Shown: piece by piece, positions 4,185-24,000 of the stretch
Layout of the letters: every line of letters starts with the position of its first letter
Position numbering within the stretch: position 1 is the stretch's first letter
Assembly: GCF_017591665.1 (NCBI RefSeq)
Contig: NZ_JAAKGC010000002.1
Location: forward strand, 126,487 to 150,486
Direction: 5' to 3'
Source of the DNA: Aetokthonos hydrillicola CCALA 1050
Lineage (GTDB): Bacteria > Cyanobacteriota > Cyanobacteriia > Cyanobacteriales > Nostocaceae
DNA length: 24,000 bases
Made by a program: the position numbers and the translations under genes
The notes under the pieces: generated by a model
What the model was told of the DNA's origin: nothing
Seen by the model: the letters and a program-made list of their open reading frames with translations, nothing else
Databases searched by the model: none

Positions 4185-4547
4185 GCGATCGCTCCCAACA
4201 TAGATATTCGTGGTAAAATACAGCAAGCTGACCTCAAACGCTCAGCAAAAAGTCTCAATCCTGACGGATGGCGACGAGTTAACAACAGCCCGAATCCTTT
4301 TAAAAGCTTGCAGCGCTACTTGGGAGTAATACCGTTTCTTTATGAAGCTGCATTTATGAACCCCCCGGCTGCGCCGTCCCCCCTTACCAAGGGGGGACTA
4401 CAGGGGGGTAAAGTTATGTGCGTCTTCATATAAAATTGGGAGTAGCACCAGAGCAAGGGGAAAAAGCTGTTTCGGTGATTGGGTTTTGAAGAGAAACAGA
4501 CAGAAGATTGCGGAAAATTGTATGCTCAGCTTGTATTAAGGCTTGAA
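4185..4547. repeat. Left copy of a 198-bp direct repeat (4185-4299 + 4465-4547), interrupted by a 165-bp insertion
   Basis: gcgatcgctcccaacatagatattcgtggt.aaatacagcaagctgacctcaaacg... and ...agctgtttcggtgattgggttttgaa.agaaacagacagaagattgcggaaaa...cttgtattaaggcttgaa recur, near-identical, at 15983-16180. Confidence 0.9.
4329..4435. mobile_element. MITE-like palindromic element (copy A), possibly flanked by a 9-bp duplication TTGGGAGTA
   Basis: Imperfect terminal inverted repeats (tttatgaagctgcat / atgtgcgtcttcata) and a G/C palindromic core (ccccttaccaagggg). ttgggagta occurs at 4320-4328 and 4436-4444. The element is absent from the other copy of the 198-bp repeat. A related element lies at 5583-5688. 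Confidence 0.6.
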
Positions 4548-4570
4548 CGTTAGTAAATTTTCCTATCTTC

Positions 4571-5563
4571 ATGAAACCCGCGAAAAAAATATTAATGTTA
4601 TCAGCAAATCCTAAGAACACAAATCCTTTACGCTTAGGGGAAGAAGCACGGAAAATTCAAGAAGCGTTGAAACTAGCTAAACATCGAGATGAGTTTGAAA
4701 TTGCGACTTCTTGGGCAGTACGAGTAGAAGATTTACGCCGTGCAATGATAGACTATCAACCGAATATCATTCATTTTTCCGGACATGGAGTGGGAGCAGA
4801 GGGTTTGGCATTTGAAGATAATTCTGGGATGACGCAGTTGGTGAGCAGCGAGGCTATAGCAAGTTTATTTGAATTGTTTCGTGGAACAGTTGAGTGTGTC
4901 CTACTTAACGCCTGCTATAGCGAAGTTCAAGCACAAGCAATTCACCAGCACGTTGATCACGTAATTGGGATGAATCAGTCAATTGGGGACGTAGCTGGAA
5001 TTGAATTTACTATTGGCTTTTATGATGCTTTGGGTGCTGGAGAAAGCTATGACTATGCTTTTAGGATGGGGTGTAATGCTATTCAGCTAAAAGCTAGCCA
5101 GGAAAATTCAACACCAGTCATTAAATCTAGACCATCTTCTGTTTCTGTTAAAAAAGCTGTAAAATCCGATGTTATGTCTGAAAAAAAATCACAACAAAAA
5201 TCCAGTGAGGGAATTGTCTTTAACATTAGCGGTGCTAAAATAGGCGGTGGGATACAAGCTGTACAGGGTGATAACAATCTACAAAGCATGACTAACTATG
5301 CAGCTATTGAACAAAAGTTAAATCTTGCAGAAGTTGCAAAAGAAATTCAACAACTTTTGCAAAAAATAGAAAATTCAAATCCTGCCACAACGAGATTAGA
5401 AAAACTAATGATTGTTACTAAAGCTGTTGAACACATTGAAAATAATTCAGCCTTGAAAGCGCGTGTATTAGAATTAATCAACGCAGATAGAAAAGAAGCT
5501 TTAAAAAAAGAAATTAACCACCCGTTAGCAAAGATTGTACTAGAATCTATAGAAGATTTGTAA
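4571..5563 (+). CDS. Caspase/CHAT-like protease-fold protein (predicted effector) with a Ser/Lys-rich linker and helical C-terminus
   Basis: 330-aa ORF. The N-terminal ~170 aa carry the His...Cys arrangement of clan-CD peptidases: NIIHFSGHG (H68/H72), then ~40 residues later VLLNACYS (C115). This is the widespread cyanobacterial ILxLxANP...RL..E.R.I...L N-terminal module. It is the first gene of a co-directional cluster. Confidence 0.6.
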   Translation: MKPAKKILMLSANPKNTNPLRLGEEARKIQEALKLAKHRDEFEIATSWAVRVEDLRRAMIDYQPNIIHFSGHGVGAEGLAFEDNSGMTQLVSSEAIASLFELFRGTVECVLLNACYSEVQAQAIHQHVDHVIGMNQSIGDVAGIEFTIGFYDALGAGESYDYAFRMGCNAIQLKASQENSTPVIKSRPSSVSVKKAVKSDVMSEKKSQQKSSEGIVFNISGAKIGGGIQAVQGDNNLQSMTNYAAIEQKLNLAEVAKEIQQLLQKIENSNPATTRLEKLMIVTKAVEHIENNSALKARVLELINADRKEALKKEINHPLAKIVLESIEDL

Positions 5564-5582
5564 AAAATCAGTGTTTATACCA

Positions 5583-5688
5583 ATTTTCTGTGAAGCTGCA
5601 CATTATTTTTACCCCTCCTAACCTCCCCTTTCCAAGGGGAGGAAAGAAGGCGGTGGGTTTCTTTCTACACGTCTTCACATAAAAATGG
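5583..5688. mobile_element. MITE-like palindromic element (copy B), same family as 4329-4435
   Basis: ataccaattttctgtgaagctgcac...cccctttccaagggg...gtcttcacataaaaatggtat. The termini and core are similar to copy A. It lies in the intergenic space after the protease gene and could also act as a hairpin terminator. Confidence 0.55.
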
Positions 5689-5730
5689 TATTAAGTGATA
5701 ACTGCTAACTGTTGACGAGTGGTGCATTCT

Positions 5731-5758
5731 GACTCCTGACTCCTGACTCCTGACTCCT
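5731..5758. repeat. Heptamer tandem repeat (GACTCCT)x4
   Basis: Read directly from the sequence. The same heptamer forms the arms of the hairpin element at 11092-11310. It is an STRR-like cyanobacterial repeat class. Confidence 0.9.
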
Positions 5759-5820
5759 TTTTATACTATATCTCTCATCAATTATCTTGAGTTTCTAGTA
5801 TCTTTAACGCAAACTGATAA

Positions 5821-6960
5821 ATGAGTAACAATTTACCCCCTGAAGATAATTTACCACTCATTAAAGACTCAAATATTGAATTCCAGGCAAAAAATTCCAC
5901 AATTGATGGTGGAGTAAAAGTTATTCAGGGGAACGACAATATCCAGATTCACCAGGTTGTTGTTGGAAAGGTCACCTTTGAAAGTAGTATTCGGAAGCAT
6001 GTAAAACGACCTCGTTCTGAACAGGAACCTCCCTCTCTGCTGCCATATTTAGTAAATAGAAAAGAACAGGAAGAGGAGTTAGAAAACGCAGTTAAACTGT
6101 TGTTGAAACAAGTCCATCCTCGCCCTCTAGTTTGCATTATTCATGGTAGCGAATTTCAAGGTCATTATCAATTTTTAAAGCGGTTGCAAAAATCCTTTCT
6201 GCCAAGATTTTTAAAATTAGATCCAACCCAGAAGGTACAGGAATACTGTCTCGAGTGGCCGACTGGATTAAAAAATTTAGATCTACTGAAGGATCGGTTA
6301 TGCAAAAATCTAGTAACCAAAGTTCTAGGTCATGATTTTGATTGTCCGGAAGAAATTAATGCTACTTTAAAAGAAATAAATGCAAGCTTCTGCAAATACC
6401 CTAGTCCAATTGTCATTGATACTCATATACGTACTCAAGACTGGCAGCAGCAAGGATTTGAAATATTAAATAAACTGTTGGAGTTTTGGGACAATTGGCC
6501 TGATCTTATTCCAGGACAGAGACTCATAGTCTGTGTATTTATTAAATACACTATCTATCTGCACAAACATACTGAAGAATTTTCGTTTCCACGGATTTTC
6601 AATTGCTTGCCCAGTTTGTACAAGCGGCATTACTATCAAAGTATAAATAAAAAGATTTCAAAAGTACTTAATAAATCAAAAAATAAACATTTTAATCGCT
6701 TATCGTATACTATCTTGTCAGAATTGAAAAATATTAACATAATGCATGTTGAACACTGGGTACGCGATAAAGAAACGAAACAGTTTGTTGGTGAGGAGAA
6801 GACTCAGAAACTGATTAATGACGTAACACTTATGTTTAATCATTGGGGAAAGGACACAATTCCTATGGATGATTTAGCTGATGAGTTAACTCGCCTACTA
6901 AAGTCACTAAAAGTTACTAATTATACTCATGATAAGAAAAAGCCTAATAGGAGCAAATAG
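5821..6960 (+). CDS. Hypothetical protein; possible inactive STAND-like / vWA-MoxR-associated adaptor
   Basis: 379-aa ORF. LPYLVNRKEQEEELENAV...RPLVCIIHGSEFQGHYQFLKRL sits where a STAND NTPase would have its Walker A, but no GxxxxGK[ST] is present. It ends 2 nt before the AAA+ gene, with an AGGAG 10 nt upstream of that start. The family assignment is inference only. Confidence 0.35.
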   Translation: MSNNLPPEDNLPLIKDSNIEFQAKNSTIDGGVKVIQGNDNIQIHQVVVGKVTFESSIRKHVKRPRSEQEPPSLLPYLVNRKEQEEELENAVKLLLKQVHPRPLVCIIHGSEFQGHYQFLKRLQKSFLPRFLKLDPTQKVQEYCLEWPTGLKNLDLLKDRLCKNLVTKVLGHDFDCPEEINATLKEINASFCKYPSPIVIDTHIRTQDWQQQGFEILNKLLEFWDNWPDLIPGQRLIVCVFIKYTIYLHKHTEEFSFPRIFNCLPSLYKRHYYQSINKKISKVLNKSKNKHFNRLSYTILSELKNINIMHVEHWVRDKETKQFVGEEKTQKLINDVTLMFNHWGKDTIPMDDLADELTRLLKSLKVTNYTHDKKKPNRSK

Positions 6961-6962
6961 AT

Positions 6963-7949
6963 ATGAAATTTCCATTCTACAGAGGTGATGGAACTCGACA
7001 GCAGTATGAATCGCCAGCAAAACTACCTATCTCTAGGCGTTCTCTACTACTGAAGCCAGAATATTACATTGCTGATCTAGGACTTAAAGATGCTTGTAAT
7101 GTAGCCCTCTTATTGGGACAACCCCTTCTGCTTACGGGAGAACCCGGAACTGGAAAGACTCAATTTGCCTACAGTCTTGCATGGGAACTTGGTTTCGATC
7201 CACCATTAAAGTTTGAAACTAAGTCTACTAGTACCGCTCGGGATCTTTTCTATACCTATGATGCATTGAAACGTTTCCAAGATGCCCAAAGCGGTGTTTT
7301 ATCAAGCCCCTTGGATTATATCACCTACCAAGCTCTGGGGCTGGCGATTTTACTAACCCGAGATCCGGCTGAGGTTGAGCAAATCTTACCATCAAATTTC
7401 GCACATCCTGGCAAAGTACGCTCTGTTATTTTAATTGATGAAATTGATAAAGCTCCTCGTGACTTCCCAAATGATCTGCTCAATGAACTGGAACACATGT
7501 ATTTTCGTATTCCAGAGTTAGGAAATAAAATAATTGAAACTGATCCAGCACTCCAACCCATTGTAATTATTACCAGCAATACTGAAAAGGATTTGCCAGA
7601 TGCCTTTCTACGGCGTTGCATTTATTATGATATTCCCTTCCCAGAGCATGAGAGACTTGCAGAAATTATTGCCAACCGCCTTGGACTTTATAATGGTAGC
7701 AGCAATCCATTTTTACAAGATGCTCTTGACTTATTTTATCAATTACGTTCCCCTCAAAGTGGTTTAAGGAAAAAACCTGCAACAGCTGAACTATTAGGTT
7801 GGCTCTTGGCTCTAAAAACCGTTGCTGGTGATACACCTAATCCCTTAGATAAATTAGATCTGGTTCAAGCTACCCTCAGTAGCTTAGTCAAAACTTCCGA
7901 AGATCAAGAAAAAGCTAGACAACTTGTAAAGCAATGGATGCTGCAATAG
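6963..7949 (+). CDS. MoxR-like AAA+ ATPase (AAA_5-type)
   Basis: 328-aa ORF with Walker A LLLTGEPGTGKT, Walker B VILIDEIDKA and sensor region IVIITSNTEKDLPDAFLRRC. It overlaps the downstream gene by 16 nt. Confidence 0.8.
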   Translation: MKFPFYRGDGTRQQYESPAKLPISRRSLLLKPEYYIADLGLKDACNVALLLGQPLLLTGEPGTGKTQFAYSLAWELGFDPPLKFETKSTSTARDLFYTYDALKRFQDAQSGVLSSPLDYITYQALGLAILLTRDPAEVEQILPSNFAHPGKVRSVILIDEIDKAPRDFPNDLLNELEHMYFRIPELGNKIIETDPALQPIVIITSNTEKDLPDAFLRRCIYYDIPFPEHERLAEIIANRLGLYNGSSNPFLQDALDLFYQLRSPQSGLRKKPATAELLGWLLALKTVAGDTPNPLDKLDLVQATLSSLVKTSEDQEKARQLVKQWMLQ

Positions 7950-10804
7950 AAATAAATATCCCTGACTGGTTAAATCGCAATGTTCTAACCGATTTTATTG
8001 ATGAACTCAGAGATGCAGGCTATAACATTGGCATTGCTCAGTATATTGCAGCTTATGATTTAATCTTAGCACTAACGGCTCAGGGTGAACCCTTGAATAA
8101 ACCAGAGCGTCTCAAAACTCTGCTTGGACCAATCTTTTGTAGTTCACCAGCTGAGCAGGAAGATTTTCAGCAACGCTTTGACCGTTGGGTTGAGTTGGTT
8201 TGTCAAACTGGTCGCGCAACGGAGGGAGCAGATGTAAAAGCTCAAGCATTATCAGAAGAATTAGGAAAGATCGAAAGGCGTTTGCCTCAGTTAAATAGAA
8301 GACTTATTCTAATTGCTCTAACAGGAATCATTCTACCCTTGTTCTTGGAACAGTCTATAAAAGATGAGAGTACTAGGCCAAAACAACCTTCTGCGAAACA
8401 ACCTTCCGCAAAACAACCTTCTACAACACAACCTTCTACAACACAACCTTCTACAACACAACCTTCTACAACACAACCTTCTACAACATTTGTAACGCCA
8501 CGCAATCGAGACTTTCCACAGGATTGGCAGATATATTTGTTCTCTTTTTTGCTTACTTCTGGTATTATTTTTATAGTGTGGCGTTTATGGTGGTTATGGC
8601 GTGCTCGCCTGTTCTTACAGCGTCATGGAACTACGAAACAGCCTGAGCTATATAAGATTGCTTTCCGTGAATTTGAGCAAAACTTATTCCCTACAATTAT
8701 ATTGATACATGCTGCTCAGAGTTTAAGGTATCGAATCCGTATCCCATCCGATGAACTTGATATTGATAAAACCATTGATGCAACTTTTCGCCAAGGAGGA
8801 TGGCTGACACCAGTATACGGTATTCGTCAAGTTCTTCCCGAGTATCTGTTTCTTATTGATCGTGCTAGCTACTCTGATCATCAGGCTAAATTTATAGAAG
8901 AGATGGTTGAGCGCCTTAAACACAATGGAGTTTTTATCACAAGCTATTTCTTTGATGATGATCCGCGAATTTGCTTTCCTAGTGATGGTATAAGCTCTCC
9001 ACAGAAACTTAACGAAATAGCAGCAAAATTTGCTCAACATCGCCTTGTTATCGTCTCAGATATAGAGAAGCTATTTAGTTCTCAAACTGGTGAGCTAGAA
9101 TCTTGGGTGAGTCAAATGACAAGCTGGGAGCATAGAGCTATTTTAACCCCAAAACCTTTCGAAAGTTGGGGATATCAAGAGTTAGAACTCGCACGCCAGT
9201 TTATTGTTTTACCCGCAACTCCTCAAGGGGTGCGATCGCTTAGCCAAGTTTTACATCACGGATCTGCAACCTACGTTCTCTCTGAAAAAGACCAAAATCC
9301 TCTACCGGAAACGTTGCGTACTCAACCCCATTACTGGATTGAGCGCAACCCGCCAAAACCTGAGCAGATCAATACAATGTTAAACTCATTGCAGGAATAT
9401 CTCGGCGAAGACGGTTTTTACTGGCTCAGCGCTTGTGCTGTTTTTCCGGAGTTACATTGGAACATTACAATCTATCTGGGTAATGCTCTCAAAACAGAGG
9501 ACAGTCAAAGTCTTTTGGAGGTTTGTTCACTAACTAATCTGGCTCGCTTACCCTGGTTTCGTTATGGTTACATACCAGATTGGTTGCGTTCTCGTCTCAT
9601 TGCAACCCTTACATACGAACAGAAGCATACAATCCGCACTGCACTTCAAGATTTACTCATCACTGCTGTTCAGGGATCTGTAGGTAGACAGCAATTAGAA
9701 GTTGCACAAAAGCATCACAGTTTTCTACCTAAACTTGCTAATTCGATACTTTCCCTGTTATCTAGAAGAGCGACTGAAGGTAGTCCATTACGAGACTACT
9801 TGTTTTTAAGCTTTATGACGGGACAGCCAAAACTCGCTGTTGAGGTGCTAGATACTTTCAGTCATTTACTACAAAAGCCACAAAGAATCACTCGGCGACA
9901 GTTTATCAAATGGGCTGGTTTTGTTAGTGCAGGATTCGTAGGAGCAATAGCGCTGCAGCAACTGTTTCAGGAGAATCTGCAGCAGTTTGAATTTCCGGTA
10001 GTGAAGGTGGATGCAACAGGAAAAATTACCAACCGCACGAATAAACAAGCAAATTTCTTTACTGAAGATTTGGGTAATGGTGTGACTTTAGATATGGTAG
10101 AAATTCCTGGGGGTAAGTTTGTTATGGGTTCCCCGTCAACAGAAAAGGATAGATCTGATTCTGAAGGTCCACAGCACAATGTGACGATTAAACGTTTTTT
10201 CATGGGCAAGTTTACCATTACCCAGCAGCAATATCAGGCAGTTATGGGGAAAAATCCCTCGAACTTCAAAGGAGAAAAACGACCTGTTGAAGGAGTAAGT
10301 TGGGATGATGCGATCGCTTTCTGTGCTAAACTATCTCAAAGGACAGGTAAAACCTATCGGCTACCAAGTGAAGCTGAGTGGGAATATGCTTGTCGTGGTT
10401 GGACTACTACGCCGTTTTATTTTGGTGAGACGATTACAACGGATTTAGCAAATTATAACGGTGACTATACTTATGCATCTGAACCAAAAGGCGTTTACCG
10501 TCAGCAAACAACCGAAGTAGGAAAATTTCCACCAAACGCTTGCGGTTTATATGATATGCATGGTAATATATGGGAGTGGTGTCAAGATACCTGGCATGAT
10601 AACTACCAAGGTGCGCCAGATGACGGCACTGCATGGGTGAGCGATAATAATGTTAATAATTCTCGACGTCTGCTGCGTGGCGGTTCGTGGGTCAACGATC
10701 CGAGGTTCTGTCGTTCGGCGTTTCGCGTCAGGCTCGCGCGCGCCTTCTCGAACGACCTTGTGGGTTTTCGCGTGGTCGTGGTTGGTGCAGCCAGGACTCA
10801 TTAG
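7934..10804 (+). CDS. Membrane protein: CoxE-like N-domain, TM hairpin with PST repeat, vWA-like domain (degenerate MIDAS), Tat-like anchor, FGE-sulfatase/CLec domain carrying a DGR variable region
   Basis: 956-aa ORF. The N-terminus FIDELRDAGYNIG...EDFQQRFDRWV and the middle ELDIDKTIDATFRQGG...EYLFLIDRASYSD...VFITSYFFDDD are collinear with CoxE-type vWA proteins (PF05762) as I remember them. Hydrophobic segments are LILIALTGIILPLFL, IYLFSFLLTSGIIFIVWRLWWLW and WAGFVSAGFVGAIAL (the last preceded by TRRQFIK). The C-terminus has RLPSEAEWEYACR, GLYDMHGNIWEWCQD and LLRGGSW...GFRVV. Confidence 0.75.
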   Translation: MDAAIEINIPDWLNRNVLTDFIDELRDAGYNIGIAQYIAAYDLILALTAQGEPLNKPERLKTLLGPIFCSSPAEQEDFQQRFDRWVELVCQTGRATEGADVKAQALSEELGKIERRLPQLNRRLILIALTGIILPLFLEQSIKDESTRPKQPSAKQPSAKQPSTTQPSTTQPSTTQPSTTQPSTTFVTPRNRDFPQDWQIYLFSFLLTSGIIFIVWRLWWLWRARLFLQRHGTTKQPELYKIAFREFEQNLFPTIILIHAAQSLRYRIRIPSDELDIDKTIDATFRQGGWLTPVYGIRQVLPEYLFLIDRASYSDHQAKFIEEMVERLKHNGVFITSYFFDDDPRICFPSDGISSPQKLNEIAAKFAQHRLVIVSDIEKLFSSQTGELESWVSQMTSWEHRAILTPKPFESWGYQELELARQFIVLPATPQGVRSLSQVLHHGSATYVLSEKDQNPLPETLRTQPHYWIERNPPKPEQINTMLNSLQEYLGEDGFYWLSACAVFPELHWNITIYLGNALKTEDSQSLLEVCSLTNLARLPWFRYGYIPDWLRSRLIATLTYEQKHTIRTALQDLLITAVQGSVGRQQLEVAQKHHSFLPKLANSILSLLSRRATEGSPLRDYLFLSFMTGQPKLAVEVLDTFSHLLQKPQRITRRQFIKWAGFVSAGFVGAIALQQLFQENLQQFEFPVVKVDATGKITNRTNKQANFFTEDLGNGVTLDMVEIPGGKFVMGSPSTEKDRSDSEGPQHNVTIKRFFMGKFTITQQQYQAVMGKNPSNFKGEKRPVEGVSWDDAIAFCAKLSQRTGKTYRLPSEAEWEYACRGWTTTPFYFGETITTDLANYNGDYTYASEPKGVYRQQTTEVGKFPPNACGLYDMHGNIWEWCQDTWHDNYQGAPDDGTAWVSDNNVNNSRRLLRGGSWVNDPRFCRSAFRVRLARAFSNDLVGFRVVVVGAARTH
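8381..8485 (+). repeat. In-frame 15-nt tandem repeat, 7 units, encoding (KQPSA)2-KQPST-(TQPST)4
   Basis: Units aaacaaccttctgcg / aaacaaccttccgca / aaacaaccttctaca / acacaaccttctaca x4, read directly. It lies between the first two hydrophobic segments of the 956-aa protein. Confidence 0.95.
10670..10804 (+). other. DGR variable region (VR) at the 3' end of the 956-aa gene
   Basis: Its 5' 18 nt (ctgctgcgtggcggttcg) are repeated exactly at 12427-12444 just after the RT gene. The segment is the only strongly divergent part between two otherwise ~85-90% identical paralogs. It occupies the canonical LLRGGSW...GFRV position of CLec-fold DGR targets, and avd and RT are immediately downstream. Confidence 0.7.
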
Positions 10805-10855
10805 CCCTTTACTCTCTTGCACTTTTGCACTCTACCCTCTATTATTTACCTTTAC

Positions 10856-10882
10856 TCCGCCGCAGGCGGATCGATTTTTTTT
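10856..10882 (+). terminator. Hairpin plus T-run downstream of VR (intrinsic terminator; possibly also the DGR target-site hairpin)
   Basis: tccgcc-gca-ggcgga (6-bp GC-rich stem, 3-nt loop) at 10856-10870, followed by tcga and tttttttt (10875-10882). Confidence 0.6.
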
Positions 10883-10894
10883 GAGTTTTTTAAG

Positions 10895-11091
10895 ATGAGC
10901 GATTTGCCTATTATACAGAAAACCTACGATTTGATCAAGTGGTATGTCCCAATTTTAAACCGCGTGCCGAGAGAACATAAATTTTTATTGGCAAACCGGA
11001 TGATTACAGGACTGTACGATATTCGGGATGCTCTGATCGTAGCACGGTATTCCACCAAAGACAAGTTAGCTCAGTTAGAATCTTTGAAGAA
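10895..11091 (+). pseudogene. avd: DGR accessory variability determinant (Avd), 3'-truncated
   Basis: MSDLPIIQKTYDLIKWYVPILNRVPREHKFLLANRMITGLYDIRDALIVARYSTKDKLAQLESL matches the N-terminal half of cyanobacterial Avd proteins as I recall them. From 11092 the frame runs into a GAATTCAGGAGTCA-repeat hairpin element and ends at 11173. No second half of avd follows before the RT start. ATG 10895 is preferred over the listed 10817 start, which lies upstream of the terminator. Confidence 0.6.
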
Positions 11092-11310
11092 GAATTCAGG
11101 AGTCAGAATTCAGGAGTCAGAACAAGAGCGTAAGGGATTCGATTCAAACCTGCCACTAATTGCAGACCGCTAAATCTTCTCCTATCGGAGACGCTACGCG
11201 TAGCTTGCTTCCCCAAAGGGGTACGATTTAGCCGGGGTCTTAAGCCCCTTAACTCATCTGCCAGTCGTACAGAATTCATGCGCTCATTCTGACTCCTGAT
11301 TCCTGAGTTC
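11092..11310. mobile_element. ORF-less hairpin element with inverted heptamer-repeat arms, replacing the 3' half of avd
   Basis: The left arm is (gaattcaggagtca)x2 at 11092-11119. The right arm ttctgactcctgattcctgagttc at 11287-11310 is its imperfect reverse complement. The interior contains further palindromes (gctaaatc...gatttagc). Confidence 0.55.
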
Positions 11311-11329
11311 TATTTAATAAGACAACAGC

Positions 11330-12391
11330 ATGAAACGACATGGTAATCTGTGGAAGGACGTTATCGCGTTTGAGAATTTACTAACAGCTAGCCGGAAAGC
11401 ACAACGGGGCAAACGTTTTCGAGACAATGTTCTGTCGTTCAATTACAATCTAGAGAAAGAGCTATTTCAACTACAAGCAGAATTACAGTCAAAAACATAC
11501 AATCCCGGTTTATATACAACATTTCGGATTTTTGAACCAAAGCCACGTCTGATTTCTGCTGCTCCTTATCGCGATAGAGTAGTACATCACGCTCTTTGCA
11601 ACATTATTGCTCCTATTTTTGAAAGAACATTCATTCATGATTCCTACGCTAACCGCGTTGGTTTTGGCAGTCACCGCGCGTTACGTCGTTTTACAAGCTT
11701 TGCGCGCTCAAGTCGCTACATTCTGCAATGCGATATTCGCAAATATTTTCCCAGCATCGACCATGAAATTTTAAGGTCACTGGTACGCCGTAAAATCAAA
11801 TGCCGTGATACACTCTGGCTAATCGACAATATTATTGATGCAAGTAACCCTCAAGAACCAGTTATCGATTACTTCCCTGGTGATGATTTACTTATGCCTT
11901 TGGAACGACGAAGAGGCTTGCCAATTGGTAATTTAACCAGCCAATTCTTTGCGAATGTATACCTTAACAGTTTAGATCATTTTGTTAAAGAACAAATCAA
12001 AGCGACCAAATATGTTCGCTACGTTGATGATTTTGCTTTGTTTTCAGATGACCGAGAATTTTTAGAAAACGCAAGACGAGAAATCGAAGAACACCTTGCT
12101 AGTCTGAGGCTCAAGCTTCATCCTGTTAAGAGCCAATTATTTCAGACAAAACACGGTGCCAATTTTGTTGGTTTTCGCATCTTACCAAATCGGATTCGAG
12201 TAAGGAACGATAATCTGCGTCTCGCAAGGCGAAGATTACGAAAGATGGTTTTAGACTATAGAGAGGGCAAAATTACCCAACAGGAAGTATCTCAGTCAAT
12301 TCGGAGTTGGATTGGTCACTTAAAACATGGAGATACTTGGCGATTGCGCCAGGAAATATTTAGTTCTCTCGTGTTTTCAAAAAAACCCTAA
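11330..12391 (+). CDS. DGR-type reverse transcriptase
   Basis: 353-aa intact ORF beginning MKRHGNLW. It has the RT motifs [26 protein letters not shown] (the [I/L]GxxxSQ motif typical of DGR RTs) and the catalytic [11 protein letters not shown]. Confidence 0.85.
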
Positions 12392-12426
12392 TATGTTATC
12401 CTCAACTGTGGGGTAGGCAATACCGA

Positions 12427-12444
12427 CTGCTGCGTGGCGGTTCG
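12427..12444 (+). other. 5' stub of the DGR template repeat (TR)
   Basis: An 18-nt exact match to the start of VR (10670-10687), located 36 nt after the RT stop. The match stops at the edge of the inserted cassette (12445). A tgg that would continue the match follows the cassette at 12881-12883. Confidence 0.55.
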
Positions 12445-12880
12445 AATTCAGTTATCAGTTATCAGTTATCAGTTATCAGTCGATTATGAATAGTTTAGTT
12501 TATGAGAAAGCGTATAAATTTGCCATTCGCATTGTAAACGCATACAAATATCTTTCTGAAGAGAAGAAAGAATATATTTTATCAAAGCAATTAATTAGAA
12601 GCGGAACCTCAATTGGAGCTAATATCGCTGAAGCTAATGGAGCAATATCTCAAGCAGATTTTTGCTGCAAAATTTCTATTGCTTATAAAGAATGCTTGGA
12701 AACGAAATATTGGCTTTCTTTGTTAAAAGATACAGCATACATTGAGCAGAAAGCATTTGATAGCATTTATGAAGATGCAGATGAAATAGGAAAAATTCTA
12801 TTTTCAATCCTTAAAAAAACAAAAATTAAACAACAATCAATAGAATGATAACTGATAACTGATAACTGATAACTGATAAG
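12445..12880. mobile_element. IVS-like cassette: four-helix-bundle gene flanked by inverted heptamer arrays, inserted in the TR
   Basis: (cagttat)x4 at 12449-12476 and (gataact)x4 at 12847-12874 are reverse complements of each other. The interior is visibly more AT-rich than the flanks. Like the element in avd, it starts with gaattcag. Confidence 0.65.
12486..12848 (+). CDS. Four helix bundle protein (23S rRNA intervening-sequence protein / Avd superfamily)
   Basis: 120-aa ORF. LIRSGTSIGANIAEANGAISQADFCCKISIAYKECLETKYWLSLL is the hallmark of the TIGR02436/PF05635 family. Confidence 0.8.
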   Translation: MNSLVYEKAYKFAIRIVNAYKYLSEEKKEYILSKQLIRSGTSIGANIAEANGAISQADFCCKISIAYKECLETKYWLSLLKDTAYIEQKAFDSIYEDADEIGKILFSILKKTKIKQQSIE

Positions 12881-16252: not shown

Positions 16253-18829
16253 CTAATCTAAACTTTGTAAGCCGATCGCTATCTTACTATGTTTCTCAAT
16301 TTGACCCATGACTTGTTTTGCTCGTTGAATCACTACCGCAGGTAAACCGGCTAAACGTCCTGCTTCAATTCCATAGGATTTATCAGCACCACCTGGTTGA
16401 ACGGAGTGCAAAAAGATAATCTGGTCTGGTAACTCTTTCACTGTTACTTGATAGTTAGCGACATTTGGTAAAATTGACGCTAACTCATTCAACTCATGGT
16501 AGTGCGTTGCAAAAATTGTTCGCGCCCGAATTTCTGTTGCAATATACTCTGCTACAGCCCAAGCAATTGAAAGTCCATCAAATGTTGCTGTTCCGCGCCC
16601 AATTTCATCTAATAACACCAAGGATCTTGAAGTTGCATGGTTGAGAATATTTGCTGTCTCATTCATCTCCACCATAAATGTTGATTGACCAGTCGCCAAG
16701 TCATCCACTGCACCGACACGAGTGAAAATGCGATCGCACACCCCCAACTTAGCAGACTTAGCAGGCACAAAACTACCAATCTGTGCCATCAACTGAATCA
16801 ATCCCACCTGTCTTAAATAACAACTCTTACCACTTGCATTAGGTCCAGTCAAGATAATTAAATCAGGTGATACCTCATATAAGTTCTCCTCTACCAACCC
16901 TAGCTGAGTAGAATTTGGCACAAAAAACCCTGCTGGTAAAGACTTTTCTACTACCGGATGACGCCCATCGACTATCCTAATTTCTCGTCCTGGTATCATT
17001 TCCGGACGACAGTAACCTTGATAAACCGCCAATTCTGCCAAACCAGCCAACACGTCAGCCGCAGCAACTGCACGAGAAATATTGCGAATGCTCTCCGCGT
17101 GTTTTCCTACCTCTTCGCGCAACACTGCAAAAATTTCATACTCCAACTTATTTAAATCATCCCGCGCTGTGAGAATTCGGGCTTCTCTTTCCTTCAATTC
17201 AGGTGTGATGTAGCGCTCCTCGTTGGTCAATGTTTGCTTGCGGATGTAATTAGAAGGTACAGAATCAGCTTTTGCACGAGAAATACTGATATAATACCCG
17301 AAGGTTTTGTTAAACCCTACTTTTAAATTGGGTATTGCCGTCCTTGCTCTCTCATCAACTTCTAAATTAGCAATCCACTGTTGATCTTCTTCTACAGTAA
17401 CGCGCCTCTGATCTAACTGAGGATTAATTCCAGGGCGAATCAAACCACCTTCTGTTAAATGTATTGGTGGTGACTCCACAATATGAGCTTGTAATTTTTG
17501 TGCTAAATCTTGCAGCAGAGGTGGTGCTTTTTGTAGAGCCTTTAAAAACGGAGACTCAGCCTCACTGACTAAGTGAGATAATTCTGGTAGACGAGATAAC
17601 GAATCCGCCAATGCGACTAAATCTTTTGCATTAGCAGTACCAGAACCAGCACGTCCCGCCAAGCGTTCCAAGTCATAAATTTGCTTTAACAGTTTCCGCA
17701 ATTCTTGGCGGAGGTTAGTGTTTTCTACGAGTTCTTGGATCGTGTCTTGTCGAGCGCTAATACCTTTTATATCAAGTAGAGGTTGCAATAACCAGCGCCG
17801 TAAAGCGCGACTCCCCATTGTTGTACAGGTGTTATCTAACGCCCAAAGCAGAGAACCATGAAAACTACCATCACGAACTGTTTGGGTAATTTCTAAGTTA
17901 CGGCGGGTTTGATGATCAACAATTAAGAAGTCACTGAGGGTGTAGGTGCGGAGTAGTTGTAGAGGAACGGTGTTTTCTTTTTGTGTATCTTCTATGTATT
18001 CTAAAAGCCCACCAGCAGCGCGAACTGCTAACGGTAGGTGATCGCAACCGAGCCCTTCAAGCGATCGCACTTTAAACGTTTGCAATAATCTTGCTCTTGC
18101 TTCACCTGCGCTGAACCGATTTTGCGATCTTAAAGAATAACAGAACGATGGTGGTAAACAATCTGGTAAATGTTCTGATTTTTCACCCGGACGTAGTAAA
18201 GTTCCCAAATCAGGAGCATTGGTAGGAACCAGTACCTCTGAAGGTTGCAACCGCATTAATTCTTGGGTGAGATGTTCTAAAGGAGTTCCTTGAGTTGTGA
18301 GAAATTCACCAGTAGAGATATCTGCATAAGCTAAACCCCAATGATCTCCCGCAATAACCACAGCAGCTAGATAGTTATTATGACTCCCCTTGAGCATTCC
18401 TTCTTCTAGCAAAGTACCAGGAGTGAGGATGCGGGTTACTTCACGTCGCACCAAACCAACAGCGTCAGCAGCGTCTTCCACTTGATCGCAAATCACCACT
18501 GCATAGCCTTTTTCTACCAACTGGGTAGTATAACGCTCCCATGCATGATGTGGTACACCTGTCATGCATACCCTACCGACTTCTCCCCCGTGTTTACTTG
18601 TTAAAACTAATTCCAGTTCTCTGGAGATAGTAACCGCGTCTTGAAAAAAAGTTTCAAAAAAATCTCCTACCCGATACAGCAGCAGTGCGTGAGGATACTT
18701 ATCCTTCATTTCCACGTAGTGCTGATACATTTTACTGAGCCTACTGCGATCCACTAGTCGATGATCAGCATGAGGTGCAGTCGAGTTATTAGGTTCGTTT
18801 GTTTGGGACGCAGAGTCAGAAGCCGTCAT
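16253..18829 (-). CDS. mutS: DNA mismatch repair protein MutS
   Basis: 858-aa ORF with the N-terminal mismatch-binding region [14 protein letters not shown], Walker [15 protein letters not shown], Walker [10 protein letters not shown], and THYHEL. Confidence 0.95.
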
Positions 18830-18880
18830 GGTTACTAAGTTACAAGCTGCTAATACTCGATGATAACGGAAATTCAGAGA

Positions 18881-19486
18881 TTATTTCATGGAAGTGTCAA
18901 TTATTTGTACGAGTGTTCTAAAAAGTCGGTCACAGTGAAGTGACGCTTTGCGGACTTGATCAGCATTCAAGCTTGCCAAAAGCAGTGAAGCATGTTTTAT
19001 TTTGTGATACTCACCTTTAGAAGTGTTACAAGTAGCAGCTTTCAGTTTTTTGTTTAAAATATCTTTATCAAGACTCTCCACATCTTGACTTCTCTTAATT
19101 GCATTTTCTTTGAACCCTTGACCATAAAACTTTCTAAGAGTTTCAATGTCAGCAATAAACCATGCTTCCATAACTTGAACCATTAAGTGACAATGAATAT
19201 CATCAACATCTGGTAAATCCCAATTATCCCTCGACTTTAAATGCTCCCAAGGAGACAATTTAACTGGAGCTTCAGCATCTACAAGCAACAAGTTAAAGGC
19301 ATCTTGGTGAGATTTTAAAGCATTTTTAAAGTCCCGAAAAGCGTCATTACGCTTACCGCACATAGTAATGTTTATTCGTCGCTCGCGTGATACTTGTAGA
19401 AATTTATGAAATCCTTCCCGAAGTTTAGCTTTTGACTCTTTACCATCACCACCACCTTCAATATAAATACGGATCTCCTTTACCAT
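18881..19486 (-). CDS. DUF4276-family protein (Toprim-like predicted nuclease partner of the upstream ATPase)
   Basis: 201-aa ORF. IRIYIEGGGDGK..., LLVDAE and MEAWFIAD are the conserved acidic motifs of DUF4276 as I recall them. Its start overlaps the ATPase stop by 7 nt. Confidence 0.6.
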   Translation of the reverse strand: MVKEIRIYIEGGGDGKESKAKLREGFHKFLQVSRERRINITMCGKRNDAFRDFKNALKSHQDAFNLLLVDAEAPVKLSPWEHLKSRDNWDLPDVDDIHCHLMVQVMEAWFIADIETLRKFYGQGFKENAIKRSQDVESLDKDILNKKLKAATCNTSKGEYHKIKHASLLLASLNADQVRKASLHCDRLFRTLVQIIDTSMK

Positions 19487-20661
19487 CGGGTTCCTCCAAT
19501 TTCACCCATCCGCCAGAGATCTCCTAGAGTATAATTTTCTAGCCAGTCTTTCAATTTTTCAGGATCAAGACGACGTAAATGGCTTCCTTGTTCATCTCGC
19601 TCAAATACCAGCACAGCTTCAGGGGGGAGCGAAGAAACTAAAGCATCAGAATGAGTTGTTACAATCAGCTGTGTCCTCTGAGATGCTTCAATTAGCATCT
19701 CAGCAATCGTGGGGAGAATATCTGGATGTAAACCGATTTCTGGTTCTTCAATACAAATAAGTGGTGGTGGTGTTGGATCTAGAAGTAAAGCCATTAAAAA
19801 TAAATAACGGAGAGTACCATCAGATAAACGAGTTGCGGGAATAGGTTGTGCAAGATTTTCTTCACGAATAAATATTTGTACTGTACCACCATAGATTTTT
19901 ATACTTAATTCTTCTGCTGCATCATAAAATTTCTTAAGTTTTTCTATGATTTGTCTATTGCCTAGTTGATATTGTAAGTTATTTAAAAATAAACCTAAGT
20001 TACTACCGTTTTCTAGAAGAGGATGCTCTGGCAAGTCTGTTTTTTGAGGATTTCTAGGTTCTGAGTCTCGCCCAATATTCCAAATTCTATATAAACTAAT
20101 ATTAGAAAATTGAGTTGCTAAATATGAAAGTTCCGGATACAAATCGGGATCTTTTCTTTGCGATAGAACTGATTGATCAGGAATCATGTCCTCACGGCGG
20201 AGTTCTCTTTGTTTCACCACACCGTCTAGTTTTACATTTAAAACAGGACGACCACGTTGATAACGATAGTAAAAATAAACATCATCTTCACCAGGAAATG
20301 GTTGTTCATTTTCCACAAATTCGTCTATCAACTCTAATTTTTGACCAGCCATAGATAAGCTAATTTGATAGCTTAGTGTCTGTATTCTGGGATAGTCTAC
20401 AATAGCTTGTATTTCTGCTACAGTGTTACTATGTTGACCTTTCCACAAAAATTCACTAATCCCTCCCGCTTGACGAATAAACGCAGGTAAATCTGTAGGT
20501 GTTGCTTTAAGAAGCGCGATCGCCTCAATTAAATTAGATTTGCCGGATGCATTTGAACCAATTAATATATTCAAAGGTCGCAGTTCAATTTCTTCTCCCT
20601 CACTTCCGTAGGAAAGGAAGTTTTCTAATCGTAAGCGACGGATAAAGGTTTTTCCGTTCAA
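19480..20661 (-). CDS. ABC-type (AAA_15/AAA_21-like) ATPase
   Basis: 393-aa ORF with Walker A ILIGSNASGKSNL, signature-like LSDGTLRYLFL, Walker B/D-loop LICIEEPEIGLHPD and H-loop VTTHS. It has a TTG start with AAGGAGA 6-7 nt upstream. Confidence 0.8.
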   Translation of the reverse strand: MNGKTFIRRLRLENFLSYGSEGEEIELRPLNILIGSNASGKSNLIEAIALLKATPTDLPAFIRQAGGISEFLWKGQHSNTVAEIQAIVDYPRIQTLSYQISLSMAGQKLELIDEFVENEQPFPGEDDVYFYYRYQRGRPVLNVKLDGVVKQRELRREDMIPDQSVLSQRKDPDLYPELSYLATQFSNISLYRIWNIGRDSEPRNPQKTDLPEHPLLENGSNLGLFLNNLQYQLGNRQIIEKLKKFYDAAEELSIKIYGGTVQIFIREENLAQPIPATRLSDGTLRYLFLMALLLDPTPPPLICIEEPEIGLHPDILPTIAEMLIEASQRTQLIVTTHSDALVSSLPPEAVLVFERDEQGSHLRRLDPEKLKDWLENYTLGDLWRMGEIGGTRW

Positions 20662-21718
20662 GTAATTCTCCTTTTATCTGATAATCTTAATTCTATAGAA
20701 TTTATGATGGAGTAACTAAAATAACAATACTAGCATCACCCATAGAAGTCTTTTGTGCATCTTCAATCCGTATTTTTTTACTATGGCTTCGCGCTTTAAA
20801 GGAGTGCGATCGCGTTTCCTACTTTAGACCTATTGACAAAGTTGGCACAGCTTTAATTTGTTACCAATGATCTCCAACAGCGAAGGAGGTGGTATTCTCC
20901 GGTCGCTGATGTCTATGCTCATTTAATTGTGTCAAATAATACTTTATTACTTAAGTAAGTTGGTTTTTCGCGATCGCCTGCTTTCACTGTTAGAGCGTTG
21001 CTCCCGGTGGAACTTTCTCCAAAAAGCATAAAGTTTTATAAAGAAAGTTCTACGACGATTGTGCTTTAACCAAGTCTGAGATACAAAAGAATGAGTGAGC
21101 AAATTTCGGTTTGACTCAACTATTGACGAGCCTTCGGGCAAGGCAGCTATGCAGAAGGCAAAAGGCAGAAAAACGAGAGAAGATTGAGAAAAATAAGGGT
21201 AAAGCATAGCTGCCCAACTTTGCCCATAATCGGTTCAGGTTTCCGGATAAAACCGGAACAGAAAATAAAACCTGTTGCGAGGCGCGCAGCGCGTTCGCGT
21301 AAAGCCCTGCGGGCATAGCTGCGCGTCGGGCGAAGCCTCTCCGTCAGGAGAAGCGTCTCTACTTGGGAGAGGGATAGGGTGTCATTATTAGAATACTCTG
21401 TCTTCAACCTTATGGTATACACATAGGTGGCTCTTTTAGAGCCCGAAATGCCCAAACTTTGGCGGAATTGAAAATCTATGCCTGTGACTAGTCTTAGGAT
21501 TAAGACAAAGAAACCAAGTTTCAGGTGGTGATTTCAAGACTTGTGTATATACCACAAGGCTTTAGGCAACGATCATCAATCGCTTCTGTCCTCTAGCTTC
21601 TTACTTGAAAATCAGTTTTTCTGATTTTTACAAATTTTCCCCATAATTACTTGTAGATTAATCTGCAATTTTCGATGAGGTTATACTCATCTCCATTTCG
21701 TAAACAAAATAATCAATT

Positions 21719-21911
21719 ATAGGACTTACGCACTATACAAATCGAATATGATGTCTATCAACAGATCATGGTTGTTTTAGACTTGTAGGGGCGCTCATGC
21801 TTGCCCCCCTACAATGGACGAGAACACCCTCATTTGCGGAAAAATCTTTGGTCGAGGTGCTATTAATTAGTGCCCCATATCTAATGATTTCTGTCAATGG
21901 GTAAGTCCTAA
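21719..21911. mobile_element. MITE-like element with aggacttac / gtaagtcct termini
   Basis: The inverted termini are ataggacttacgcac (about 21719) and gggtaagtcct (to 21909), with an internal palindrome gtaggggcgctcatgcttgcccccctac. This matches a repeat class common in Nostocales intergenic regions, from memory. Confidence 0.4.
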
Positions 21912-21963
21912 ATTCCTTTGGCGGTTCAGATTTTTATAGGGAAAATTTCCAAATAACATAACT

Positions 21964-23427
21964 TTGACAAAAGGAAAACAAATGGAGAATGACATCATTT
22001 TTGAGCCTCTAACGTTTCGGAACCTAACCGTCAAAAATCGGATCTTTCGTTCTAATATCTCCGGTAGATTTGATAACTACGATGGTTCAGGAAACCAGGC
22101 AAGGATTAATTGGGAGGAGAAGTTTGCCAGAGGTGGTGTAGGGGCGATTGTTTCTTCCTTCGTTCCCGTGACTATCAAAGGAAGAATTGTGCCCAATTAT
22201 GCGACGATTCACAGCGATGATCGCATTCCTTTCTGGCACAAAGTGGGCGAAAAAGTCCACGAATACGGCTGCAAATTTCTTATGCAGCTGAGCCATTCCG
22301 GTCGCCAGCAAGATATCCAAGGCGTTGAGAACAGTTATATACGCCAGAGTTCGACCAACCATACCGAGTCATTTCACGGATTAGAGTGTCGGGCGATGAC
22401 AAAAGAAGAGATTGGGGATACAGTCCGGGCTTTTGCCAATGGTGCTAGACGCGCCCGCGAAGCAGGACTCGATGGGGTAGAACTACATAGTGCCAATGGT
22501 TATTTATTTACTCAATTTCTTAGCTCCGGGATCAACGACCGCACCGACGAATATGGAGGTTCTCTAGAAAATAGAGCGCGTTTTTTACTAGAGGTTATCC
22601 AAGCAATTCGCAAGGAGGTGGGAAATGATTTTCACCTGCAAGCTAAAATCAGTGCCGTGGAATATAACAATGCTGTAATTCCTTGGGAAAAACCAGGAAA
22701 TACCTTAGAAGAGTCCATTCAAGTCTGCAAGTGGGTAGAGGAAGCTGGGGCTGATGCGATTCATGTGTCCACTGGAAGTTTATTTCCCCATCCCCTGAAC
22801 CCTGCTGGGACTTTTCCCCTAGAAGGTAAGTTTTCAACGGATAAAGCCAGTAGTTCTTACGACACCATGCTTTCTAGTGGTAACCAAACCTTCCGCAACT
22901 ATCTGCTCTTTCGCTATAAGTTCTTACATCCGGTTTTTCTGTGGTTCTGGTATCGGGTTCAGCGACAGAGGCAGAATGAAACTAACCCAATTCAAGGGTT
23001 AGAGGTAAAAGCTGAGGCTTTAGACCAATCGTTTCGTGAATTTGTGTCGTCCCAAGAGATGCAGAAACTGCTACACACTTACCAAGGAATTAGTCTGAGT
23101 CATGCAGGAGAGATTAAGAAAAACGTCAAGATTCCGGTAATTTGCACAGGGGGATTTCAACAGGCTTCTTACATTCGTAAAGCAATTGAGGAGCAATTTT
23201 GCGATGCAGTAAGTATCGCTCGTCCTCTAGTAGCTAATAACGATCTAGTTCAGCAATTTGCCAAAGGAAAAGATATTCCAGAACGACCCTGTATTTATTG
23301 CAATAAATGCTTACTTAATACCTTAGAAAACCCTTTGGGATGCTACGAAAGCTCCCGTTACGGCGGCGACTATGATGAAATGGTTAAAGAAGTCATGACT
23401 GTATTTAACCCGCCACCATTTACATAA
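21964..23427 (+). CDS. NADH:flavin oxidoreductase, Old Yellow Enzyme family
   Basis: 487-aa ORF with HSANGYLFTQFLSSGINDRTDEYGGSLENRARFLLEV (PF00724 signature) and the C-terminal VSIARPLVANNDL. The listed start is TTG 21964. ATG 21982 (MENDIIFEPL) is an equally plausible start. Confidence 0.85.
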   Translation: MTKGKQMENDIIFEPLTFRNLTVKNRIFRSNISGRFDNYDGSGNQARINWEEKFARGGVGAIVSSFVPVTIKGRIVPNYATIHSDDRIPFWHKVGEKVHEYGCKFLMQLSHSGRQQDIQGVENSYIRQSSTNHTESFHGLECRAMTKEEIGDTVRAFANGARRAREAGLDGVELHSANGYLFTQFLSSGINDRTDEYGGSLENRARFLLEVIQAIRKEVGNDFHLQAKISAVEYNNAVIPWEKPGNTLEESIQVCKWVEEAGADAIHVSTGSLFPHPLNPAGTFPLEGKFSTDKASSSYDTMLSSGNQTFRNYLLFRYKFLHPVFLWFWYRVQRQRQNETNPIQGLEVKAEALDQSFREFVSSQEMQKLLHTYQGISLSHAGEIKKNVKIPVICTGGFQQASYIRKAIEEQFCDAVSIARPLVANNDLVQQFAKGKDIPERPCIYCNKCLLNTLENPLGCYESSRYGGDYDEMVKEVMTVFNPPPFT

Positions 23428-23448
23428 TTTTAGATTTTGGATTAATTT

Positions 23449-24000
23449 ATGAGCCAACAAGATAAACCAATACTAATTCAAACAGTTTTCAAACGCATTT
23501 GGGTGTTTGTTATTGGAACTGTCTTAGCTGTGGTACTACTTCTAGCTTGGCCCTTCCTTTGGAATAATGGTTCGGTCAGATATGCAGACATTAACGAACA
23601 TTTTAAATATGGGTCGATTGGCGGTGAAAAGGCGAATGGCATTCCTTATTGGGTCTGGAAAGTTCTCCCCGTCGTGTTTGCTGATAAATTACCAGGGAAA
23701 GGGTATACCTCTTTAGGTTTTATTCAAGAACCAGGGAAGGATCTCCCAATAGGCTTTTCCCAAAGCAAGATTGGCTTTGAACGGGTCGGTCAAAATTGCG
23801 CCACCTGTCATGCTGGATCCGTGCGCGAGACACCCAATAGTCAACCGCAAATTATTACTACTATGCCCTCTAATACGGTCAATTTAGGGGCGTATATCCG
23901 GTTTCTCTCAGATATCGCCATTGACGAGCGGTTCAATGCTAGGGAAATGATGCCACATATTGAAGCGATGGGAGCCAAACTCAACCCGCTTGAAAAATTA
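23449..24000 (+). CDS. Membrane-anchored CxxCH (c-type heme motif) protein, N-terminal part; continues beyond the window
   Basis: The frame is open from ATG 23449 to the window end: MSQQDKPILIQTVFKRIWVFVIGTVLAVVLLLAW (TM helix) ... GQNCATCHAGS (CxxCH). It is not in the ORF track because no stop lies inside the window. Confidence 0.6.
   Translation, partial: MSQQDKPILIQTVFKRIWVFVIGTVLAVVLLLAWPFLWNNGSVRYADINEHFKYGSIGGEKANGIPYWVWKVLPVVFADKLPGKGYTSLGFIQEPGKDLPIGFSQSKIGFERVGQNCATCHAGSVRETPNSQPQIITTMPSNTVNLGAYIRFLSDIAIDERFNAREMMPHIEAMGAKLNPLEKL

Follow-up and report, generated by a model that had tools for sequence, protein, structure and literature searches.

The locus considered here is a pair of genes lying directly upstream of mutS in the cyanobacterium Aetokthonos hydrillicola CCALA 1050, within a stretch of 24,000 nucleotides (nt) of contig NZ_JAAKGC010000002.1 (positions 126,487 to 150,486, forward strand; hereafter the window). 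Its closest described counterpart is HEC-01, which consists of an ATP-binding cassette (ABC) ATPase and a TOPRIM protein with an OLD-like metal site, and which was discovered embedded in Hma systems (Payne et al. 2024, 10.1101/2024.01.29.577857). The nearest characterised relatives of HEC-01, MAD3-MAD4 and PARIS, have been explained only recently. MAD3 and MAD4 form a 2:2 heterotetramer whose assembly turns on both ATPase activity and Mg-dependent DNA cleavage, the complex nicking and linearising plasmid DNA, and MAD4 alone is insoluble (PMC13662399). The family DUF4276 has been assigned to the Toprim superfamily, with a link to Mad4 (PMC12065111). The PARIS report (PMC11464382) describes a system that couples an ABC ATPase to a tRNA-degrading Toprim nuclease, and sets DUF4276 partners apart as a separate branch of AAA_15/21 systems.

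A probable HEC-01 module upstream of mutS

Reading of the sequence together with the list of open reading frames (ORFs) placed three genes on the minus strand, in the order ATPase, DUF4276 gene and mutS. The features of the pair itself are as follows.

19480..20661, minus strand: ATPase gene HEC-01A, 393 amino acids (aa), TTG start at 20661-20659
18881..19486, minus strand: DUF4276 gene HEC-01B, 201 aa
19480..19486, minus strand: 7-nt overlap ATGGTAA, joining the ATPase stop codon with the start codon of the Toprim gene (sequence read)
20667..20673, minus strand: Shine-Dalgarno-like AAGGAGA, 5 nt 5' of the TTG (sequence read)

It is likely that this pair constitutes an intact, stand-alone HEC-01-type module, comprising an ABC ATPase along with a Toprim-fold DUF4276 protein, and that it is a candidate anti-phage system. 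In searches with the PADLOC models, the ATPase matched the HEC-01A model PDLC04177 at 9.5e-183 (605.6 bits), with residues 5-393 aligned to positions 3-393 of the 393-position profile, and the small protein matched the HEC-01B model PDLC04201 at 1.4e-82, with residues 1-196 aligned to positions 1-200 of 202; no other model came near these scores. At the threshold used for these models (E<=0.01), the small protein matched none other than HEC-01B. The locus has the composition of HEC-01, namely an A-type ATPase and a B-type TOPRIM/DUF4276 partner encoded by adjacent genes on one strand.

The ATPase was matched by the Pfam families AAA_21 (2.1e-36), AAA_15 and SMC_N, with AAA_23 and AAA_29 also matching its N-terminus. 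The N-terminal head is SMC/RecF-like, and the motifs of the ABC ATPase clade occur in order: Walker A (GSNASGKS, residues 35-42), a signature-like motif (LSDGT, 279-283), Walker B (LICIEEPE, 301-308) and an H-loop (TTHS, 335-338), all four being invariant among eight orthologues. Sequence matches in the PDB were distant only, to PtuA and SMC heads.

The small protein was matched over its full length by Pfam DUF4276 (1.6e-25), and the domain calls of an earlier note made from this DNA alone (AAA_21/AAA_15 and DUF4276) were thus confirmed by Pfam hidden Markov model search. Invariant columns and an AlphaFold2 model were both derived from a shallower alignment of 58 sequences. Among the residues invariant throughout this alignment were E10, which ends strand 1 in the modelled topology, and D70-x-E72, which follows strand 3; these are the positions at which Toprim catalytic residues sit, according to the motif description in PMC12065111. 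The model (predicted local distance difference test score 88.5, predicted template modelling score 0.85) has strands at residues 4-11, 38-44, 63-70 and 99-102 that alternate with helices, followed by a helical C-terminal part, and hence has the four parallel strands, the acidic residue at the end of strand 1 and the D-x-D/E after strand 3 that define the Toprim superfamily. A Foldseek search of the PDB returned as its two best matches 6nk8_B and 6njw, the C-terminal Toprim regions of OLD proteins from Burkholderia and Xanthomonas (probability 0.99, template modelling (TM) score about 0.5 over the full length), with nothing else near. The Toprim nature that the earlier note had ascribed to the 201-aa protein is therefore upheld by these matches, and HEC-01B is predicted, from its modelled fold, to be a Toprim-like nuclease. 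Filamentous cyanobacteria are the source of all its closest homologues, whose annotation goes no further than DUF4276 family protein; a search of representative sequences recovered 1878 related clusters at E<=1e-3 and 249 at E<=1e-30.

The arrangement given in the earlier note (gene coordinates, the 7-nt overlap, the 51-nt gap to mutS and the common strand) proved correct in every respect upon re-reading of the sequence. The ATGGTAA overlap is the same in all eight orthologous pairs examined, which suggests that HEC-01A and HEC-01B are translationally coupled. The TTG start proposed for the ATPase, with its AAGGAGA, was also present as described, and is supported by seven orthologues whose ATG or GTG stands opposite it in the alignment (M-E-G-K-R-F-I).

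Several observations weigh against a defence role for the pair, or against its kinship with nucleases. Payne et al. saw no protection against any phage of their panel by the HEC-01 homologue that they tested (10.1101/2024.01.29.577857). A cold-seep study reports that E. coli B was protected by one HEC-01 representative against at least one of T4, T5 and T7, but this positive result concerns a single representative and was given in little detail. For HEC-01 itself, the evidence of a defence function is both sparse and mixed. The Foldseek E-values were modest (about 0.01, with TM 0.5), a HEC-01B profile found nothing among PDB sequences, and HEC-01B did not match the PADLOC mad4 model at E<=0.01. 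No HEC-01B homologue was found in PHROGs or in the 72,556 plasmids of PLSDB, and no phage-related, mobile-element or other known defence genes flank the window copy. Lastly, recurrence beside the DNA-repair genes mutS and uvrA leaves room for a role other than defence, although this neighbourhood of ABC-type repair genes rests on two lineages only. A phmmer search of HEC-01B against the PDB returned only spurious matches to a de novo TIM barrel, without a valid stretch. The link between HEC-01B and MAD4 is one of shared Pfam family and fold only, since neither the mad4 model nor a PDB profile match was obtained.

Distribution, decay and selection

Of 40 relatives, 8 had the small protein. Within the same family it was present in 43 of 200 sampled genomes (23 of 68 genera), and a phylum-wide sample of 300 genomes yielded 19 carriers, 17 of which belong to the window's own family. 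mutS was detected in 195 of the same 200 family genomes. The HEC-01 pair is not universal alongside mutS and is therefore, as the earlier note had supposed, accessory and not core.

About ten copies were found to have decayed through truncation or stop codons. The ATPase is absent or cut in G016, G171, G182, G134, G092 and G212, and the small gene is truncated or carries stops in G104, G079, G092 and G021. In G016 (L018:3405-4046), a deletion has fused the two genes, so that the ~20 initial codons of the ATPase run into the small gene at about codon 33; the resulting chimeric ORF of 213 aa, immediately 5' of mutS, is clearly an intermediate of decay.

Intact copies gave ratios of nonsynonymous to synonymous substitution (dN/dS) of 0.11-0.15 for HEC-01A and 0.12-0.24 for HEC-01B, compared with 0.055-0.08 for mutS, and synonymous divergence was similar among the three genes. 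Both HEC-01A and HEC-01B are under purifying selection.

Exchange of module versions between genera

Among six genomes, ATPase identity was correlated with that of mutS at r=0.76, which suggested vertical inheritance; with 37 genomes the correlation was r=0.36 (Mantel p about 0.002), and single genera contained ATPase clusters separated by more than 30%. In the maximum-likelihood tree of the ATPase, four genera (g48, g22, g62 and g5) were scattered over different clades, and mutS-adjacent copies occurred in every major clade. Approximately unbiased (AU) tests rejected single-genus ATPase clades with p-values of 1e-5 to 1e-69, which are overstated in that the groups were picked after the tree had been seen, though the likelihood differences of 89-370 log units are very large; in the mutS tree each of the same four genera forms one clade. 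An explanation by vertical inheritance and loss alone was rejected, given the fall of r to 0.36 and the outcome of the AU tests. Since the ATPase tree conflicts strongly with that of mutS, it appears that versions of the module have been exchanged between genera, and the simplest reading of these trees is that the chromosomal address was kept throughout. Recombination through the conserved flanks would do as a route for such exchange. The exchange of versions at one address is a common pattern for defence loci.

Outside the family, the same HEC-01 subfamily adjoins ndhM in Microcoleus (L043, L096 and L098), and lies just 3' of uvrA in Aerosakkonema/Planktothrix FACHB-1355 (L044:1322-6621) and Floridanema (L095:351-5621). 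In Rivularia, HEC-01 keeps the AI-2E transporter gene as its neighbour. No Hma components, integrases or phage genes were identified in the Microcoleus, uvrA-linked or Rivularia loci examined.

The variable slot between the AI-2E transporter gene and mutS

The other features to which the text refers below are given here.

16253..18829, minus strand: mutS (MutS1), 858 aa, a housekeeping gene neighbouring the module and outside it
18830..18880, minus strand: 51-nt gap between HEC-01B and the mutS ATG, holding the conserved mutS upstream motif
18867-18852, minus strand: core of the mutS motif, GTTATCATCGAGTATT, in the 51-nt gap, with a -10-like TATCAT at 18865-18860
20689..20702, no strand assigned: perfect 14-bp palindrome AATTCTATAGAATT (sequence read)
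20716..20763, minus strand: remnant of the 3' part of PDC-M07B, 48 nt/13 aa, QKTSMGDASIVIL (blastn and tblastn to relatives)

Among the 43 other family carriers, 18 have the small gene less than 200 nt 5' of mutS on the same strand, ten have it 0.7-7 kb upstream of mutS, and 13 have it elsewhere or on another contig; two could not be placed. The order in a Scytonema record is FolD, NUDIX, AI-2E transporter, HEC-01A, HEC-01B and MutS, the last four on one strand. In 27 mutS neighbourhoods whose ORFs were clustered, a conserved block that closes with the AI-2E transporter gene is separated from mutS by a variable slot. This slot holds one or more of HEC-01, PDC-M07, PhoD, an RPE65-type oxygenase, Uma2 and various non-recurrent genes, or no recognisable gene. 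The earlier note had described the pair as accessory DNA wedged against mutS. The accessory part of that description stands; the pair is not an isolated insertion in this genome, as its position recurs across the family, and on the evidence of gene order the placement before mutS is a family-wide feature of the variable slot and not a recent insertion.

PDC-M07 is a PADLOC candidate system in which an ABC ATPase is paired with a protein of about 170 aa. PADLOC detected intact PDC-M07A/B genes in the slot of several relatives (L013:8489-9724 and L014:7966-8475), and the remnant in the window was 85-87% identical by blastn to L013 and L031, with 12 of 13 residues identical by tblastn. A search of positions 20662-21963 for further PDC-M07 remnants found the 13-aa piece only, the remainder being noise.

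Only 16-71 nt separate the ATPase from the AI-2E transporter gene that precedes it in relatives; in the window genome the distance from the ATPase upstream to the AI-2E transporter orthologue is 15.3 kb, with 1.3 kb of stop-ridden debris and an opposite-strand metabolic cluster between the two. The upstream region of the ATPase in the window genome is thus secondary.

The intervening opposite-strand cluster of 15 kb, situated between the AI-2E gene and HEC-01, occupies window positions 21964-24000 and extends beyond them (L042:1351-15092). It encodes an old yellow enzyme (OYE) flavin oxidoreductase, three RoxA-like di-haem cytochromes c and a lipoxygenase, together with a saccharopine-dehydrogenase-like protein, a patatin-like lipase and a short-chain dehydrogenase/reductase (SDR), and looks like an oxylipin-type metabolic cluster. 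The part of it within the window had no counterpart in the relatives' slots that were compared. The neighbours of the pair are mutS, repeat debris and this oxidoreductase cluster. Further away, window positions 3039-12848 carry parts of a diversity-generating retroelement, including a reverse transcriptase (11330-12391), an Avd/IVS-type gene (12486-12848) and targets of FGE-sulfatase/lectin fold, as well as an iSTAND/MoxR-type cluster.

The mutS upstream region

The product of mutS matches NCBIfam NF003810 (1072 bits) and TIGR01070 (948 bits) and contains all five MutS Pfam domains; the start of the gene is supported because the MTAS N-terminus is conserved. In six genomes (G020, G011, G012, G021, G024 and G037), MutS carries an in-frame insert of about 70 aa near residues 645-655. 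These insert-bearing genes (e.g. L011:14007-16823) are open frames of 880-940 aa without stops, and the window mutS is without the insert, which could be mini-intein-like or another type of insertion.

Nearly all genomes of the family have a motif of ~20 nt, cacatcacGTTATCATCggATATTGTGG, at 25-50 nt 5' of the mutS ATG, irrespective of the gene that comes before. In the window, the conserved GTTATCATC motif with its TATCAT hexamer sits in the 51-nt gap. A promoter scan paired ATGAAA with TATCAT at a spacing of 18 nt (18889-18860), in a region where promoter-like matches are not above shuffle expectation. This upstream motif may be the mutS promoter or the site of a regulator. A distal conserved element, AAACCTTGAGCGATCGC, is found further upstream in most genomes and is missing in the window and in G064, the nearest by ATPase tree of those relatives in which the pair likewise adjoins mutS; the gaps between HEC-01B and mutS are shortest in these two genomes (51 nt in the window, 64 nt in G064). 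It is probable, judging from the motif, that mutS retains its own proximal promoter element within the 51-nt gap. Read-through from the module is possible and, because the conserved motif with TATCAT lies in the gap, is not required. The dependence of mutS transcription on the module appears to have been overstated in the earlier note, mutS being not obviously dependent on it.

The earlier note had also drawn attention to a perfect 14-bp palindrome upstream of the ATPase as a possible operator. The palindrome does exist at 20689-20702, and it was rejected as an operator on three counts. Two perfect 14-nt palindromes occur in the window, against 1.97 +/- 1.39 in dinucleotide-preserving shuffles, and a 300-nt segment of the same composition would contain one or more with a probability of 0.026; AATTCTATAGAATT occurs once in the genome; and it was not found upstream of any of seven orthologous ATPase genes. 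It is probably a chance or junction sequence.

Proposed mechanism

A mechanism can be proposed by analogy, starting from a pair that belongs to the HEC-01 family and has intact motifs and a Toprim-like fold. The ATGGTAA overlap would allow the two proteins to be made in fixed proportion, and so to form a hetero-oligomer. As in MAD3-MAD4 and PARIS, a dimer of the ATPase may act as sensor and switch, whilst the Toprim subunit would be a Mg-dependent nuclease whose activity depends on assembly with the ATPase. Upon phage infection, the complex might cut either foreign DNA, as do OLD, Gabija and MAD3-MAD4, or host tRNA, as does PARIS, and the phage would thereby be blocked. It is from these systems that we infer complex formation, nuclease activity, the substrate, the trigger and the defence role in the host organism. 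The purifying selection, the patchy presence with decay, and the exchange between genera at a fixed slot are what the sequences and trees show.

Alternative explanations

The pair might confer no benefit upon its host, being either a selfish addiction-type (toxin-antitoxin-like) cassette or a functionless relic in a recombination-prone slot. A patchy distribution, frequent decay and the exchange of versions between genera speak for this, the one homologue tested by Payne et al. gave no defence phenotype (10.1101/2024.01.29.577857), and the Pfam name of AAA_21 refers to the AbiEii toxin. Both genes, however, are under purifying selection with synonymous divergence similar to that of mutS, the catalytic motifs are invariant and the window copy is intact, such that this explanation is considered unlikely. 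The AbiEii label of AAA_21 is a naming legacy, and is no evidence of toxin function.

The second explanation is that the pair works with MutS in DNA repair or genome maintenance, for instance as an ATP-dependent nicking nuclease for mismatch repair lacking MutH, and not in defence. It is favoured by the recurrence of the pair next to mutS, immediately 5' and on the same strand in 18 other genomes and at up to 7 kb in ten more, by the occurrence of the same subfamily just 3' of uvrA in another cyanobacterial lineage, by the lack of phage or mobile-element associations in PHROGs and plasmids, and by the nicking and linearisation of plasmid DNA by MAD3-MAD4. Yet about 78% of the sampled family genomes are without the pair, whereas mutS is near-ubiquitous in them; many copies have decayed; and the conflict between the ATPase and mutS trees indicates that the pair and mutS were not co-inherited as a unit. 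The Microcoleus pair lies by ndhM with no repair gene nearby, the slot also carries unrelated cargo, and mutS keeps its conserved upstream element whatever its neighbour. A repair function is accordingly rated as quite improbable. A related conjecture is that the AI-2E-mutS gap of Nostocaceae-type cyanobacteria is a long-lived swap site, and that the placement beside mutS and uvrA reflects a functional tie to mismatch or excision repair; were it true, divergent HEC-01 versions and PDC-M07 would swap there between genera by recombination through the conserved flanks. This too we hold to be unlikely.

There is very little chance that the pair is one piece of a larger system of several genes, resembling MADS or embedded in Hma, whose other parts lie nearby: HEC-01 was discovered embedded in Hma (10.1101/2024.01.29.577857), MAD3/MAD4 is a homologous type of module within the eight-gene MADS (PMC13662399) and the ATPase has a weak match to the NCBIfam MAD3 model, but that match (NF047739) reached 80.6 bits where the cutoff is 420, the genes flanking the pair include no helicase, methylase or kinase, either in the window or in any of the related loci examined, and the conserved unit is the two genes alone. 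A MADS operon was considered separately and rejected, as the eight genes of that system, with methyltransferase, kinase and second ATPase module, are not matched by the window neighbours.

Equally slight is the chance that the pair is, strictly speaking, PARIS (AriA/AriB) or a split OLD nuclease, as the earlier note had it. In its favour are the architecture of an ABC ATPase with a small Toprim protein, the resemblance of the predicted fold to the OLD Toprim region, and matches of two AriA models to the ATPase, at 7e-35 (PDLC02980) and 7e-21. PDLC02980, however, spans 304 positions, the same length as Pfam AAA_21, and scored 119 bits against 606 for HEC-01A (9.5e-183), and the small protein matched HEC-01B only, with no match to AriB (PADLOC, E<=0.01) or DUF4435 (Pfam). 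PARIS was ruled out because of these missing partners and because the AriA score is far below that of HEC-01A; the PARIS paper likewise puts DUF4276 partners in a separate AAA_15/21 branch (PMC11464382). As to OLD, class 1 OLD proteins and GajA are fused, and GajB, which Gabija requires, is absent from the locus. Class 1 OLD and Gabija were in turn rejected as identities, there being two ORFs, no UvrD-like gene nearby and matches of only about 1e-16 to GajA models. Among the other PADLOC matches of the ATPase were PDC-M07A (7e-30) and AbiLi (1.7e-24).

The preferred reading thus remains that of a stand-alone HEC-01 module. The earlier reading of the locus was right in kind, as an accessory ATPase and Toprim pair of a candidate defence type, and wrong in family, the PADLOC models identifying that type as HEC-01 and not PARIS. 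Its remark that the DUF4276 version was predicted and not characterised also requires revision: this version is catalogued by PADLOC as HEC-01 and has been tested twice with mixed results, and MAD3-MAD4 has been characterised biochemically.

Significance

The locus adds an intact and well-documented cyanobacterial example to HEC-01, a candidate defence type whose activity is unsettled, and for the purposes of annotation it is settled as not being PARIS. Novelty is modest, because the type has already been catalogued and its relatives are being characterised; what is new is the evolutionary picture of a fixed slot by mutS with exchanged and decaying versions. A single slot beside an essential repair gene, in which versions have been swapped, lost and replaced across genera, provides a natural series of present, absent and variant strains with which defence by HEC-01 against cyanophages could be tested.

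Comparison with known systems

Two-gene modules of an AAA_21 ATPase with a small partner are also found in AbiL (AbiLi ATPase and AbiLii) and in PDC-M07. The AbiL partner AbiLii is a Toprim protein of RloB type, a family other than DUF4276. The PDC-M07 partner of about 170 aa is an unrelated protein, although the system occupies the same chromosomal slot in relatives.

OLD and GajA resemble the window pair in coupling an ABC ATPase to a Toprim nuclease, and the C-terminal regions of OLD are the best structural match of HEC-01B. In class 1 OLD and GajA both domains reside in one polypeptide, whereas in the window they are split over two overlapping genes; Gabija further adds the UvrD-like helicase GajB, whilst the window locus is without a helicase.

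PARIS shares the plan of two genes, encoding an AAA_15/21 ABC ATPase and a Toprim effector, with the ATPase as a scaffold and sensor that holds the nuclease until triggered. It differs in that AriB is a DUF4435 protein and in that AriA (about 53-55 kDa) and AriB (35 kDa) are larger than the window proteins, and PARIS is often located on phage satellites.

MAD3-MAD4, from the MADS system of Pseudomonas aeruginosa, likewise combines a P-loop/ABC ATPase with a small DUF4276-type Toprim protein, and D81/E83 of MAD4 correspond to D70/E72 of HEC-01B, both being a D-x-E acidic pair after strand 3. MADS is a methylation-linked system of eight genes, whereas the window has two genes and no methyltransferase, and the ATPase falls well below the NCBIfam MAD3 cutoff.

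It is with HEC-01 that the correspondence is closest, the window pair being the same in the adjacency and common strand of its genes, in domain types and in the conserved residues of the OLD-like metal site. The HEC-01 of Payne et al. is embedded in Hma, whereas the copy described here stands alone on the chromosome, in a fixed slot by mutS.

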